Source: Escherichia coli
GTDB lineage: Bacteria; Pseudomonadota; Gammaproteobacteria; Enterobacterales; Enterobacteriaceae
Strand: one strand, 5' to 3'
NCBI RefSeq assembly: GCF_003334405.1
Contig: NZ_QOWM01000001.1
DNA length: 64,000 nucleotides
The translations under genes were made by a program, and so were the position numbers. Every line of letters starts with the position of its first letter. Position 1 is the stretch's first letter. The notes under the pieces were generated by a model, which did not search any database, had not been told where the DNA came from, and worked only from the letters and a program-made list of their open reading frames with translations. Below, piece by piece: positions 42,243 to 52,953 of this stretch.

Positions 42243-43436
42243 TCAAATCTGTCGTAACTGCGCCTCAACATACAAATAGCCAATTCCCAGCACCTGTTGT
42301 GCGCGGCTTAATTGCCCAAAGCCAATTTGCGTCGCTTTCACGCTCGGTCCTTCGTCGCGGTCGAACGGGTTAAATCCTGTCTGGCGAATAATAGTATTAA
42401 GCCAGTTCTCACCAAAGGCACAACTGCGACCGTACAACCAAATCTGATTAATATTGAGGATGTTGAGGAAGTTATACAGACTCAAACCAATGGCATTGGC
42501 AGAGCGATCAACCCAGCTGGTGATCCACGGTTCTCCACTTTGCCAGGCAGCGATTAACTGCGCTGTAGTCAGTTTTTCAGGATCAAGTTGAGTACTAACC
42601 GGTTGTGATTTTAGCCATACCCGCGCCTGTTTTTTTAATGCGCTTAACGAGGCGACGGTTTCCAGGCAGCCATAACGTCCACAGTCGCAGACGACGCCAT
42701 CCGGATTAACGATGGTGTGACCAATCTGTCCGCTACCATACAAACTGCCGCGATAAATTTGCTCGTTAATCACGAACGACGAGCCAATGCCGTAATCAAC
42801 GTTGATCACGCAGAAATCCCGTTCCTGCGAATTATTTTGCCATTTCTCCGCCAGCGCCAGCATCACGCAGTCATTATCGACCATCACCCGAATGCCGAGC
42901 TTCTCTTCCAGCAGATATTTCACCTCCACCGGCGTTGTCCACGGCGCTTGCGGCATGGTTTGCGACACGCCGGTCACAGGATCAACCTGACCGTGGATTG
43001 CCAACGCCAGGTTGATGGTATGGTCCGGCCACAATTTACGGTGGCGATGCCAGCATTTTTCGATTTCGGACAGCAGCGCCTGCGGCGTCGGTGCATCAAT
43101 CTGTAAATACTCAAATTCACCTTTCGGACTTAAACAAGCATTAGCAACCTGACACTCAATACTGGTGGGCGTCACGTTCAGGCACAGCGTCCAGTCACCT
43201 TCCGGCGCAATCAGCCATGTACCGCTACTATGCCCGCGCGTCTGGCTTTCATCGTCAATATTCACCACCCGTTTTTCGCTTTCCAGTTCCTGCAAAATAT
43301 TACTGACTGCCGGAATCGAAATTTGCGCCAGCCGGGCCAGCGTTGATTTATTGGCGCGCTTTTGCCGGTACAGCAGTTCCAGAATCACGCATTTGTTATG
43401 GTGGCGAATCTGTTGATTATTAATGCAGGCTCTCAT
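42243..43436 (-). CDS. yphH: ROK-family (NagC/Mlc-like) transcriptional regulator
   Basis: 397 aa from MRACINNQQIRHHNKCVILELL...; N-terminal HTH, ROK sugar-kinase-like fold with CxCGxxGC motif. Confidence 0.88.
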   Translation of the reverse strand: MRACINNQQIRHHNKCVILELLYRQKRANKSTLARLAQISIPAVSNILQELESEKRVVNIDDESQTRGHSSGTWLIAPEGDWTLCLNVTPTSIECQVANACLSPKGEFEYLQIDAPTPQALLSEIEKCWHRHRKLWPDHTINLALAIHGQVDPVTGVSQTMPQAPWTTPVEVKYLLEEKLGIRVMVDNDCVMLALAEKWQNNSQERDFCVINVDYGIGSSFVINEQIYRGSLYGSGQIGHTIVNPDGVVCDCGRYGCLETVASLSALKKQARVWLKSQPVSTQLDPEKLTTAQLIAAWQSGEPWITSWVDRSANAIGLSLYNFLNILNINQIWLYGRSCAFGENWLNTIIRQTGFNPFDRDEGPSVKATQIGFGQLSRAQQVLGIGYLYVEAQLRQI

Positions 43437-43553
43437 CTTCACTAAACCTTGTTTAGTTAATTGCGTGATTATTCCGCGAAAACATTGCCAGATTGTTCAA
43501 TACACTGCCACAAATCTTTTAATTCAGTATGTCTTGTTAATATTGAGGGCACC

Positions 43554-46500
43554 ATGACTCCAGTAAAAGTGTGGCAAGAGCGCGTTGAGATCCCGACCTA
43601 TGAAACCGGGCCGCAGGATATACATCCCATGTTCCTGGAAAATCGCGTTTATCAGGGATCGTCCGGCGCGGTTTATCCCTACGGCGTGACCGATACGCTG
43701 AGCGAGCAGAAAACCCTGAAATCCTGGCAGGCGGTGTGGCTGGAAAACGACTACATCAAAGTGATGATCCTGCCGGAACTGGGCGGTCGGGTGCATCGCG
43801 CGTGGGATAAAGTGAAACAGCGCGATTTTGTTTATCACAATGAAGTCATTAAACCTGCGCTGGTGGGGCTGCTGGGGCCGTGGATTTCCGGTGGGATTGA
43901 GTTTAACTGGCCGCAACATCATCGCCCGACCACCTTTATGCCCGTTGATTTCACCCTCGAAGCCCATGAAGACGGTGCACAGACGGTGTGGGTAGGCGAA
44001 ACGGAGCCGATGCATGGTTTACAGGTGATGACAGGTTTCACCCTGCGCCCTGACCGGGCGGCGCTGGAAATCGCCAGCCGCGTCTATAACGGGAACGCCA
44101 CGCCGCGTCATTTCTTGTGGTGGGCCAACCCGGCAGTGAAAGGGGGGGAAGGGCATCAGAGCGTCTTCCCGCCGGATGTAACGGCGGTGTTTGATCACGG
44201 CAAACGGGCCGTCTCCGCTTTCCCCATCGCTACCGGCACTTACTACAAAGTGGACTACTCCGCTGGAGTGGACATTTCTCGCTATAAAAATGTGCCTGTT
44301 CCAACCTCATATATGGCCGAAAAATCGCAGTACGATTTTGTCGGCGCGTGGTGTCACGATGAAGATGGCGGTTTGCTGCACGTTGCCAACCACCATATTG
44401 CGCCAGGTAAAAAACAGTGGAGTTGGGGACACAGTGAATTTGGCCAGGCGTGGGATAAGAGTCTGACCGACAATAACGGCCCGTATATCGAACTGATGAC
44501 CGGTATTTTTGCCGATAACCAGCCCGATTTTACCTGGCTTGATGCTTACGAAGAGAAGCGTTTTGAGCAGTATTTCCTGCCTTATCATTCTTTGGGCATG
44601 GTGCAAAATGCCTCCCGCGATGCGGTGATAAAACTCCAGCGTAGTAAGCGGGGGATTGAGTGGGGGCTGTATGCCATCTCTCCGTTGAACGGATACCGCC
44701 TGGCGATCCGCGAAATCGGTAAATGCAACGCGTTACTTGATGATGCCGTGGCACTGATGCCTGCGACCGCCATCCAGGGCGTGTTGCACGGTATCAATCC
44801 TGAAAGGCTGACCATTGAGCTCTCCGATGCCGACGGCAATATTGTACTGAGTTATCAGGAACATCAGCCGCAAGCGTTGCCGTTACCGGACGTCGCCAAA
44901 GCGCCACTGGCAGCACAAGACATTACCAGTACAGATGAAGCCTGGTTTATCGGTCAGCATCTGGAGCAATATCATCACGCCAGCCGTTCACCGTTCGATT
45001 ACTACCTGCGCGGCGTGGCGCTGGACCCGCTGGATTATCGCTGTAACCTGGCGCTGGCGATGCTGGAATATAACCGCGCAGATTTCCCGCAAGCGGTGGC
45101 GTATGCCACTCAGGCTCTGAAACGCGCACATTCGCTGAACAAAAATCCGCAGTGCGGACAGGCGAGTTTGATTCGCGCCAGTGCTTACGAACGTCAGGGA
45201 CAATATCAACAAGCCGAAGAGGATTTCTGGCGTGCGGTCTGGAGCGGCAACAGCAAAGCCGGTGGCTATTATGGCCTGGCACGACTGGCGGCGCGTAATG
45301 GTAACTTCGACGCTGGTCTGGATTTTTGCCAACAAAGTCTTCGCGCCTGCCCAACCAATCAGGAAGTGCTTTGCCTGCATAATCTGCTGCTGGTGTTAAG
45401 TGGTCGTCAGGACAACGCGCGTGTGCAGCGCGAGAAACTGCTGCGCGATTATCCGCTGAACGCCACTCTGTGGTGGCTGAACTGGTTCGATGGTCGTAGC
45501 GAATCAGCTCTCGCGCAGTGGCGCGGTCTGTGTCAGGGACGCGACGTTAACGCCCTGATGACCGCCGGGCAACTGATTAACTGGGGAATGCCCACCCTGG
45601 CGGCAGAGATGCTGAACGCACTGGACTGCCAGCGCACGCTGCCGCTTTACCTGCAAGCCAGCTTGCTGCCGAAAGCCGAACGTGGCGAACTGGTCGCAAA
45701 AGCCATTGATGTCTTCCCGCAGTTTGTCCGTTTCCCGAATACGCTGGAAGAAGTGGCGGCGCTGGAGAGTATTGAAGAGTGCTGGTTTGCTCGCCATTTA
45801 CTAGCTTGCTTCTACTACAACAAACGTAGCTACAACAAAGCCATTGCCTTTTGGCAACGTTGCGTAGAGATGTCGCCGGAGTTTGCCGACGGCTGGCGCG
45901 GGTTAGCGATCCATGCGTGGAATAAGCAACACGATTATGAGCTGGCCGCGCGTTATCTTGATAATGCTTATCAGCTTGCGCCGCAGGATGCACGTCTGCT
46001 TTTCGAACGGGATTTGCTGGATAAGTTAAGTGGAGCCACACCGGAGAAACGACTGGCGCGTCTGGAAAATAATCTGGAAATTGCGCTGAAACGCGACGAC
46101 ATGACCGCAGAACTGCTCAATTTGTGGCATCTCACGGGTCAGGCAGACAAAGCGGCGGACATTCTCGCCACGCGCAAATTCCACCCGTGGGAAGGCGGGG
46201 AAGGGAAGGTCACCAGTCAGTTTATCCTCAACCAGTTATTACGCGCCTGGCAGCATCTTGATGCCAGACAGCCGCAGCAGGCCTGCGAACTGCTTCATGC
46301 CGCGCTGCATTATCCGGAGAATTTAAGCGAAGGCCGTTTACCGGGGCAAACTGATAACGACATCTGGTTCTGGCAGGCGATATGCGCCAACGCGCAGGGC
46401 GATGAAACTGAAGCGACGCGTTGTTTACGTCTGGCGGCGACCGGCGATCGCACTATTAACATTCACAGTTATTACAACGATCAGCCGGTTGATTATCTCT

Positions 46501-52493: not shown

Positions 52494-52523
52494 GCCGGAT
52501 AAGGCGTTCACGCCGCATCCGGC
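52494..52523. repeat. single REP element
   Basis: gccggataaggcgttcacgccgcatccggc between yphB and yphA. Confidence 0.8.
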
Positions 52524-52530
52524 ATCTTTC

Positions 52531-52953
52531 CTAACGCCGATCGAGAGAAATTGCCCCCGGCCCGGTAATTGCCAATAGCAAGAACGCGCCAGCGATACTG
52601 ACATTCTTCCAGAAATTAATCATATTTGGCCCAACCGCATCGCCGGTCATATCCCAGTAATGGTGACCAATCACCGCCGTACCCAGCGTGTAGAAAATAA
52701 ACAGCACCGCCAGCGGACGGGTGAAAAAGCCAAGCACGATTAATATCGCGGCGGGCACTTCCATAACTACCGCAATAATCGCTGCCAGCATCGGCATTGG
52801 CGCGCCCAACGAGGCCATATATTGGACCGTACCGTCAAAGCCCATCATTTTGGGAAAACCAAAAATAATGAAAATTAAGACCACGGCGATACGGGCAATT
52901 AATAACAAAACGGGGCGGGCAGCTCCAAAATCAAAATAACGTAGTGTGTTCAT
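52531..52953 (-). CDS. yphA: DoxX-family inner membrane protein
   Basis: 140 aa from [28 protein letters not shown]...; four predicted transmembrane segments. Confidence 0.85.

Follow-up and report, generated by a model that had tools for sequence, protein, structure and literature searches.

The yph block of Escherichia coli, located at positions 42243-52953 of the 64,000-nucleotide stretch of DNA analysed here (the window), encodes a 1093-residue protein, YphG, which by structure prediction joins a remodelled mutarotase fold to a solenoid of tetratricopeptide repeats (TPR) and is probably an undescribed sugar-processing enzyme. Tentatively, we favour the view that YphG is an enzyme of a new kind acting at the anomeric centre, most likely by cleaving a small galactose-type glycoside imported by the neighbouring transporter YphFED. 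The yph locus is already known as an orphan, and a reading of it made from the sequence alone had described a sugar- or polyol-type uptake and catabolism module without an assigned substrate. Judging from the gene families and from our literature search, this core reading holds. Full-text searches returned no function for any E. coli yph gene; the matches to 'yphC' concerned a B. subtilis GTPase or the string 'YpHCA', and those to b-numbers came from unrelated catalogues. New here are the assignment of YphG to a fold, an estimate of how large and widespread its family is, a statistical link of that family to sugar porters and galactosidases, and the concrete residues and ligands nominated for YphG.

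Architecture and conservation of YphG

The longest open reading frame (ORF) of yphG starts from a TTG at position 43461 and encodes 1124 residues. The ATG at 43554, yielding 1093 residues, is preceded by a GAGGG Shine-Dalgarno sequence 7 nt upstream, coincides with the RefSeq start and matches the N-termini of homologues, and is therefore most likely the start of YphG. The gene (43554-46835, + strand) is annotated in RefSeq as a DUF5107 domain-containing protein, a name that all of its homologues bear. Residues 39-324 match the Pfam family DUF5107 (PF17128; E = 3.1e-55, 187.8 bits). We employed AlphaFold (AF2) with 96 diverse full-length relatives of YphG reaching as low as 25% identity (alignment A1), and obtained a model with a predicted local distance difference test score (pLDDT) of 95.7 and a predicted template modelling score (pTM) of 0.93. 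YphG starts with the DUF5107 domain, an aldose-1-epimerase-like β-supersandwich (codons 1-345; 43554-44588, + strand), which is followed by a small all-β linker domain (codons 357-435; 44622-44858, + strand) delineated by the AF2 secondary structure at pLDDT above 90, and by a TPR-type α-solenoid (codons 460-1093; 44931-46832, + strand). The solenoid is recognised by Pfam as TPR_16 at residues 499-560 (E = 8.6e-7), by consensus TPR designs in the PDB that match residues 743-815 (E of ~1e-5 to 1e-4 per repeat), by Foldseek matches of residues 460-1093 to the TPR superhelices of OGT, Ski3 and Ctr9, and by its conservation. The sequence-only reading had called YphG a TPR protein, which is right for the C-terminal solenoid but incomplete, as the N-terminal DUF5107 domain was missed.

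Searching 1.84 billion representative proteins with residues 1-480 of YphG (E ≤ 1e-30) yielded at least 890 clusters of DUF5107-TPR proteins at 50% identity, with members in Enterobacteriaceae, Aeromonas, Bacteroidota, Bacillota and Bifidobacterium. The architecture of ~1100 residues is retained down to 35% identity to YphG. A TPR protein of more than 1,000 residues at the head of a sugar-import operon had been considered unusual; the arrangement with monosaccharide-type transporters is in fact widespread and conserved. No characterised protein sharing the whole fold was found in AFDB50, where only other DUF5107 proteins did so, and the sole solved homologue is PDB 5cd6. One DUF5107-TPR relative of 1399 residues (P0235) carries an additional C-terminal domain, whose residues 1134-1397 match exodeoxyribonuclease III (Xth) models (E = 2.6e-10). 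The superfamily of this domain, which is endonuclease/exonuclease/phosphatase (EEP) phosphoesterase-like, also holds phosphatases and phosphodiesterases, and this hints that some substrates of the family carry phosphate or phosphodiester groups.

Across the 96 sequences of A1, 14 positions are invariant and ~75 near-invariant, many of them polar. The DUF5107 domain contains the invariant residues N179, N192 and E313, while E116, N118, H122, H123, H215 and the stretch N322-Q323-P324-D325 are conserved in at least 90% of the A1 sequences and invariant in a closer set (alignment A3). Further conserved polar positions are D85, K86, K100, R124, K286, K287 and D306, and the solenoid contributes a conserved loop, F876-HPWEGGEG, as well as the invariant W563. 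At the level of sequence, this pattern appears enzyme-like.

By its fold, the N-terminal domain of YphG is a galactose-mutarotase β-supersandwich, as in the aldose 1-epimerase family. Pfam reported no match of YphG to PF01263 (aldose 1-epimerase), and when the N-terminal domain was run as a profile against the PDB, it retrieved 5cd6 alone and no mutarotase, so that the relationship between YphG and the mutarotases is structural only. Aligning the domain to a mutarotase alignment with hhalign gave a probability of 57-67%. In this low-confidence alignment, H122 of YphG pairs with H83 of YphB, the invariant N192 with the catalytic H148 of YphB, and S112 with the arginine of the mutarotase ANR motif; with asparagine at the H148 position, the His/His/Glu triad of mutarotases is not present in YphG as aligned. 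For the second half of the domain hhalign was unreliable (probability 0.2%), and an equivalence of the invariant E313 to the catalytic glutamate, which may be read from the motifs PYIELM versus FCLEPM and WLxPxE versus LxPGE, is therefore drawn at the level of motifs. Asparagine and glutamate residues equivalent to N192 and E313 are also found in 5cd6. Judging from the model, YphG is thus best described as a remodelled member of the mutarotase superfamily and not as a canonical mutarotase. Clear homology of YphG to a characterised enzyme family had been named as a point that would speak against the sequence-only reading; it exists for the fold of the N-terminal domain, which is that of aldose 1-epimerases, but not for sequence-level membership, and one catalytic residue is apparently absent. 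Neither sequence nor structure revealed similarity of YphG to the catalytic domain of any CAZy glycoside hydrolase or polysaccharide lyase family. A stand-alone protein of ~330 residues, which has an LPELGGK motif and the mutarotase His/His/Glu positions, adjoins DUF5107 genes in Paenibacillus (L030, 13318-14292) and Ruminiclostridium (L036, 7853-8851), and by its motifs may be a short relative bridging DUF5107 and the canonical epimerases.

Genomic context of the DUF5107 family and the possible reaction of YphG

We collected 85 DUF5107 loci from Gammaproteobacteria, Bacteroidota, Bacillota and one spirochaete, called their ORFs and clustered the neighbouring genes, using the neighbour density within 3 kb versus 3-10 kb as an internal control. 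An AraC regulator, usually divergent, is present in 46 of the 85 loci (6.6-fold enriched), and a XylE-like sugar porter of the major facilitator superfamily (MFS) in 42, where it is co-oriented with DUF5107 at a median spacing of 66 bp (14-fold enriched). Glycoside hydrolase family 2 (GH2) β-galactosidase-like genes occur in 28 loci (6.5-fold), GH35 in nine (15-fold), ROK regulators in nine (17-fold) and GalM in 12; GH36, GH97 and another α-galactosidase-like family are further recurrent neighbours. Expressed per locus, 41 contain a galactosidase-type gene (GH2, GH35, GH36 or GH97), 52 a monosaccharide-type transporter and 21 a canonical mutarotase. Neighbours of the ROK plus YphB-type epimerase kind were seen in Gammaproteobacteria and in one likely Firmicute metagenome contig. 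In Citrobacter sp. FP75, DUF5107 and YphB accompany a MelB-like GPH glycoside symporter, a cytoplasmic GH36 enzyme and a porin, and some Firmicute loci combine DUF5107 with an oligosaccharide-type ATP-binding cassette (ABC) transporter and a medium-chain dehydrogenase/reductase (MDR). In eukaryotes, a DUF5107 orthogroup has been listed, beside digestive enzymes, as an indicator of phagotrophic stramenopiles (PMC8163842).

The minimal unit consists of DUF5107 with a transporter and a regulator only, with or without a mutarotase. Transporter, DUF5107, mutarotase and repressor are found together, without a kinase or an MDR dehydrogenase, in Citrobacter, Cedecea, Aeromonas and one further locus (L007). 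As the unit is complete in this form, the products of DUF5107 proteins must be common metabolites. Moreover, ~17 of the 96 diverse relatives carry signal peptides or lipoboxes, and two predicted-exported relatives are encoded directly after GH16 genes in SusC/D loci; a glycan-processing enzyme therefore fits better than a cytoplasmic regulator. Taken together, these data tie the DUF5107 family, which adjoins sugar transporters and galactosidases in bacteria of gut and soil, to carbohydrate use, specifically to galactoside use, and place it both inside and outside the cytoplasm. The varied regulators, the occurrence in both compartments and the minimal unit of transporter and regulator argue for an enzyme with common-metabolite products and against a regulatory adaptor.

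A weaker rival to an enzymatic role is that YphG is a non-enzymatic sugar-binding sensor or scaffold, whose TPR solenoid would bind, for instance, the regulator or the transporter ATPase and thereby tune expression or uptake. We consider this improbable. The family of the regulator varies by lineage (AraC in 46 loci, ROK in nine), which speaks against a specific protein partner, the AraC partners possess a ligand-binding domain of their own, and a sensor would hardly account for the exported relatives. In YphG itself, invariant polar residues are as dense as is typical of active sites, and a pTM of 0.93 describes two domains in a fixed arrangement and not an adaptor that flexes. That YphG acts as a partner of its regulator was also tried as the leading explanation and rejected, because the regulator comes from one family or another depending on the lineage and some of the relatives are exported.

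Our favoured mechanism is as follows. YphH would repress the divergent yphGFEDCB genes until a sugar or a derivative of it binds to YphH. YphF, YphE and YphD would import a small sugar or glycoside, on which cytoplasmic YphG would act at the anomeric carbon, using a remodelled mutarotase-fold pocket that is completed by the TPR solenoid. Here, YphG would cleave a glycosidic bond, for example that of a galactosyl-polyol or galactosyl-glycerol type compound. YphB would bring the anomers of the freed aldose into equilibrium and YphC would use NAD to oxidise the released (aglycone) polyol or sugar, such that the products could enter central pathways. The family context points to a galactose-configured substrate, and monosaccharide-type importers can carry galactosides with small aglycones, as exemplified by Mgl with methyl- and glyceryl-galactosides. 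Cleavage is favoured for several reasons: the canonical mutarotase next door recalls lacZ/galM and yihQ/yihR, the catalytic histidine of mutarotases is lost in YphG, exported DUF5107 members adjoin endo-glycanases, and a tautomerase alone yields no net conversion. Extended to the family, DUF5107-TPR proteins could, although we regard this with some doubt, constitute a new class of carbohydrate-active enzymes, in which small glycosides of the galactose type, for instance galactosyl-glycerol and galactosyl-polyols, are cleaved in a mutarotase-derived pocket (His122, Asn192 and Glu313) that the TPR solenoid closes.

Several observations weigh against glycoside cleavage by YphG, beginning with the lack of similarity to glycoside hydrolase catalytic domains reported above. 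The closest structural relatives of YphG are true mutarotases, and two of the three mutarotase catalytic residues may be retained, the assignments themselves resting on a 57-67% profile alignment for N192 and on motifs for E313. In Bacteroidota, the galactosidases carry signal peptides and the adjoining DUF5107 and GalM proteins do not; together with the adjacent monosaccharide-type transporters, this indicates that the imported species may be a free monosaccharide. Dehydrogenases of the YphC (MDR) type are found in eight of the 85 loci and are not enriched proximally (0.9-fold). The link to galactose is drawn from relatives that are ~40% identical to YphG, and E. coli-type loci are devoid of galactosidase neighbours, so that the substrate in E. 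coli could differ from the galactose type.

These points bear on a close rival, which we judge somewhat unlikely, namely that YphG acts on a free monosaccharide, either interconverting its anomers or ring forms or catalysing an epimerisation or isomerisation, to make it fit existing pathways. YphG would then play a role like that of RbsD at the head of rbsDACBK or of FucU in the fuc operon; a second step of tautomer conversion would fall to YphB, and the redox step after it to YphC. Pairing of a transporter with a mutarotase is a known theme (rbsD, fucU, rhaM), and DUF5107 is co-oriented at ~66 bp from the XylE-like porter in 42 loci, or accompanies a ribose-type ABC system. In Bacteroidota, periplasmic galactosidases are placed upstream of a cytoplasmic DUF5107 protein, the fold neighbours are mutarotases, and H122 and probably E313 are kept. 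However, the catalytic histidine is replaced by an invariant asparagine (in the low-confidence alignment), and such an activity would be redundant in the 21 of 85 loci that also hold a canonical mutarotase. Mutarotases comprise ~300 residues, whereas YphG has 1093 and a conserved solenoid loop, and exported relatives lie in polysaccharide-utilisation loci beside endo-acting GH16 genes. Furthermore, tautomer conversion alone brings about no net chemistry, and a regulated system of its own would be hard to justify for it. Both leading readings place the chemistry at the anomeric carbon, the site at which the retained histidine and glutamate are found in mutarotases.

Three Lachnospiraceae-type loci (L021 at 4013-7890, L026 and L057) have a different setting, in which DUF5107 is followed by a 137-residue protein with weak likeness to ureidoglycolate lyase. 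In L021, a short-chain dehydrogenase/reductase (SDR) and a sugar-acid dehydratase of the IlvD/Edd family are encoded further downstream. Such surroundings look like the metabolism of sugar acids or keto-deoxy sugars, and not like the use of galactosides.

The arrangement in L021 also fits an oxidative route, in which YphB would provide the right anomer, YphC would turn the aldose into a lactone by oxidation at C1, and YphG, as a new lactonase, would release an aldonate for the existing sugar-acid pathways. Mutarotases often accompany anomer-specific aldose dehydrogenases, and E. coli has several aldonate pathways for which we know of no matching aldose dehydrogenases. We nevertheless hold this weaker rival to be quite improbable, as most loci of the family lack any dehydrogenase, MDR genes (eight of 85 loci) are not proximally enriched, and the minimal unit of AraC, MFS porter and DUF5107 would offer no lactone. 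In addition, YphC is nearest to polyol and secondary-alcohol dehydrogenases and not to aldose 1-dehydrogenases.

Least probable among the weaker rivals, and very unlikely in our view, is that YphG acts as a lyase or hydrolase on an anionic oligosaccharide bearing uronate, sulfate or phosphate. The near-invariant basic residues K86, K100, R124, K286, K287 and R782 would suit such a ligand, a set of Asn, His and Tyr as found in YphG is typical of β-elimination sites, some marine DUF5107 loci are rich in sulfatases, and P0235 carries its EEP phosphoesterase-like domain. On the other hand, the partner transporters are of neutral-sugar types, the neighbours are galactosidases and not uronate enzymes, and known lyases of YphG-like architecture have their catalytic residues in the helical domain. 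Among these possibilities, cleavage of a small galactose-type glycoside remains the reading of YphG that we prefer.

The other yph genes, their control region and their distribution

All eight yph genes were recovered from the ORF list and the RefSeq annotation at the coordinates claimed before, with yphH on the - strand, yphG to yphB on the + strand and yphA at the far end. The strong family matches of each ORF indicate that they are real genes and not chance ORFs. YphH (42243-43436, - strand, from the RefSeq start; the longest ORF reaches 43442) is annotated as a ROK family protein and comprises an N-terminal helix-turn-helix (HTH), a ROK domain and a CxCGxxGC zinc motif (CDCGRYGC at residue 251), in agreement with its previous description as a ROK repressor divergent from yphG. 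Over residues 10-343, the NCBIfam models of NagC and Mlc score 112 and 107 bits, respectively, far below their cut-offs, and YphH is therefore neither of the two. A 2014 paper counts it as the third ROK repressor in E. coli and calls it uncharacterised (PMC4288165), and a 2022 survey keeps it among the transcription factors without a known function.

The transporter genes follow yphG on the + strand as yphF (46932-47915, substrate-binding protein in RefSeq), yphE (47938-49449, sugar ABC ATPase) and yphD (49474-50472, permease). YphF is a predicted exported binding protein of the ribose/allose/galactose type with the signal peptide MPTKMRTTRNLLLMATLLGSALFARA; AlsB, MglB and RbsB score 53-65 bits, below the cut-offs (for instance, 65 bits against a cut-off of 335 for AlsB), and its best PDB match, 5hsg, has a generic ABC-transporter deposit name that gives no substrate. 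YphE is a fused double ATPase, in which a strict pattern search found one Walker A and one LSGG motif, and scores 456, 435, 425 and 385 bits with AraG, XylG, AlsA and RbsA, below the equivalog cut-offs. YphD is an RbsC/AraH-type permease (RbsC 227 bits, AraH 222 bits, below cut-offs). Best NCBIfam matches, lengths and motifs thus bear out the proposed ribose-type ABC importer, since a binding protein, a fused double ATPase and an RbsC-type permease fit the importers of the ribose, arabinose and xylose type. As all three proteins lie far below every curated NCBIfam cut-off, there is no equivalog-level substrate assignment for YphF, YphE or YphD, and no substrate can be transferred to them. The sole note on expression that we found reports YphF raised, along with other catabolite-controlled transporters, on levoglucosan versus fructose.

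YphC (50505-51599, + strand) is annotated in RefSeq as a Zn-dependent alcohol dehydrogenase family protein. Its catalytic and structural zinc ligands are intact, as expected of a Zn-dependent MDR dehydrogenase, with GICGSD at residue 49, GHE at 80 and C111/C114/C117/C125, and the dinucleotide motif GLGPVG is located at 193. Asp217, which follows the GxGxxG motif, suggests NAD as the probable cofactor. The nearest families are threonine 3-dehydrogenase, scyllo-inosose 3-dehydrogenase and the xylitol/sorbitol dehydrogenases, none of them scoring above cut-off, and the closest PDB relatives are alcohol, xylitol and threonine dehydrogenases. YphB (51611-52483, + strand; aldose 1-epimerase in RefSeq) matches PDB 3nre from end to end (residues 1-290, E = 5e-210) and contains the mutarotase triad H83, H148 and E253, which is invariant in alignment A2. 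YphB is hence a canonical aldose 1-epimerase by match and triad, consistent with its earlier placement among mutarotase-family enzymes. The gene yphA (52531-52953, opposite (-) strand) encodes a DoxX-family membrane protein according to RefSeq. Membership of yphA in the module found no support; it is a syntenic neighbour, and in Cedecea and Enterobacter Ag1 a gene resembling yphA is found across the ROK gene, on its other side.

The divergent control region between yphH and yphG (43437-43553) contains a palindrome with 10-nt arms, TTCACTAAAC-CTT-GTTTAGTTAA, at 43438-43460, which abuts the start of yphH and overlaps its likely ribosome-binding site. The palindrome is followed by a conserved block, TTGCGTGA(T/G)(T/C)ATT, both lying within 43438-43485. 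These elements are kept in the ROK-DUF5107 spacers of Enterobacter, Citrobacter and Cedecea, where the proteins are only 54-84% identical, and could represent a candidate YphH operator and/or a CRP-like site. The spacer between yphG and yphF holds a hairpin with a perfect 9-bp stem (TGAGCGGCA/TGCCGCTCA; 46856-46878, + strand) and no T-run, possibly a putative element of mRNA processing or stability, and a terminator-like hairpin with a T-run is located within the last yphG codons (46787-46810). As judged from sequence, the two hairpins together could uncouple expression of yphG from that of yphFEDCB. In our scan, the count of promoter-like sites equalled the shuffle mean and that of terminator-like sites was ~2 standard deviations above shuffles; with counts this near to shuffle level, no such site was taken as evidence. 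Rfam detected no RNA families in 41500-53500.

The sequence-only reading had placed repetitive extragenic palindromic (REP) elements on both sides of the block, and these were found. Exact pattern matches identified a bacterial interspersed mosaic element (BIME) of two REP units, 42089-42114 (+ strand) and 42160-42182, between glyA and the 3' end of yphH, and a REP unit at 52494-52519 (- strand) between the convergent ends of yphB and yphA. The units at 42089-42114 and 52494-52519 are identical in an exact pattern search for which shuffles predict none, and patterns with variable gaps detected the flanking REPs that a fixed-loop consensus missed. The REP pair of 42089-42182 recurs at 11923-12016, and a 37-nt REP is present in two perfect copies at 63725-63761 and 63816-63852.

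Horizontal acquisition of the block had been put forward on account of its flanking REPs, the variable hca neighbour and an AT-rich yphF. The yph segment is matched in all 5426 complete E. coli genomes, always on the chromosome, and at least 80% of it is covered in 5371 of them; with ordinary GC composition as well, the block belongs to the core and transfer of the whole block was rejected. REPs are common in intergenic regions of E. coli, so that their presence at the flanks says little on acquisition. The hca cluster is indeed variably distributed, being present in 4374 of the 5426 genomes (absent in ~19%). Strain WP5-S17-ESBL-10 agrees with the window at 100% identity over the yph segment, and its hcaD is a RefSeq pseudogene with a frameshift and an internal stop (L001, 16808-18015); the hcaD region of the window (53050-54257) shows a 400-residue ORF at 53050-54252. 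The composition calculation likewise agrees with the earlier impression of yphF, which has a GC content of 46.1% and a GC content at third codon positions (GC3) of 43.0%, compared with a mean GC3 of 56.5 ± 4.8% for the genes of the window. It is the sole deviant yph gene, as GC3 is 0.61 in yphG and 0.58-0.67 in the genes downstream of yphF. This deviation within an otherwise uniform operon suggests that yphF was replaced or recombined separately from the rest.

Citrobacter, Cedecea and Enterobacter Ag1 (L013, L014, L016 and L017; ~10001-15600) carry a ROK-DUF5107 pair directly followed by the neighbours that also lie downstream in E. coli, which by their size and position are probably hcaT and csiE. 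Here, the module is of a second type, which consists of ROK, a DUF5107 protein of 54-56% identity, a sugar-porter MFS protein and a YphB-type epimerase; its operon lacks both an ABC system and a dehydrogenase. A different version of the module beside the same neighbours points to an ancient cassette exchange at the yph locus. Klebsiella species appear to hold both module types (clusters P0019 and P0119).

Significance and comparison with known systems

The genes yphGFEDCB are present in every complete E. coli genome examined, and the literature offered no assigned substrate for them. If YphG is catalytic, it would represent a new enzyme family on the mutarotase fold and fill an unannotated step in many polysaccharide-utilisation loci. 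Should DUF5107-TPR proteins cleave glycosides, E. coli would possess a second, cryptic galactoside pathway, and gut Bacteroidota and Firmicutes would gain the missing cytoplasmic or periplasmic step after their GH2, GH35, GH36 and GH97 galactosidases. What was a 'TPR protein' is narrowed to a short list of candidate reactions, residues (H122, N192 and E313) and a ligand class.

Compared with the aldose 1-epimerases (GalM, YphB/PDB 3NRE, B. subtilis YoxA/3MWX, YeaD and YihR), YphG is not a member of PF01263 and, in the low-confidence alignment, has Asn192 in place of the catalytic acid histidine and Ser112 in place of the ANR arginine. It is fused to a TPR solenoid of 630 residues, which makes it 3-4 times larger, and some of its relatives are exported. 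PDB 5CD6 (BDI_1685 of Parabacteroides distasonis) has 575 residues, a much shorter solenoid and ~20% identity to YphG; it is a structural-genomics deposit under the name 'TPR-domain containing protein', which gives no function. To the GH186 enzymes OpgD and OpgG, which are periplasmic glucanases without a TPR solenoid, YphG shows weak similarity at the level of fold only, with no shared conserved residues identified; GH186 itself exemplifies a hydrolase without catalytic-domain similarity to known GH families (PMC10514313).

As a system, the yph module resembles lacY-lacZ/galM and the yihO-yihQ-yihR genes of sulfoquinovose catabolism, in which YihR is the mutarotase (PMC5902678): a regulated importer is combined with an aldose-releasing enzyme and a dedicated mutarotase, with redox or isomerase steps downstream. 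The yph module differs from these in that YphG belongs to no glycoside hydrolase family and that import relies on a ribose-type ABC system in place of a LacY/GPH symporter. In rbsDACBK-R, too, a monosaccharide-type ABC importer is preceded by the gene of a sugar-tautomer enzyme and has a dedicated repressor nearby, although RbsD is small and of an unrelated fold, and the rbs system includes a kinase and a LacI-type repressor. In place of these, the yph module has no kinase, contains an MDR dehydrogenase and a mutarotase, and is accompanied by a repressor of the ROK family.

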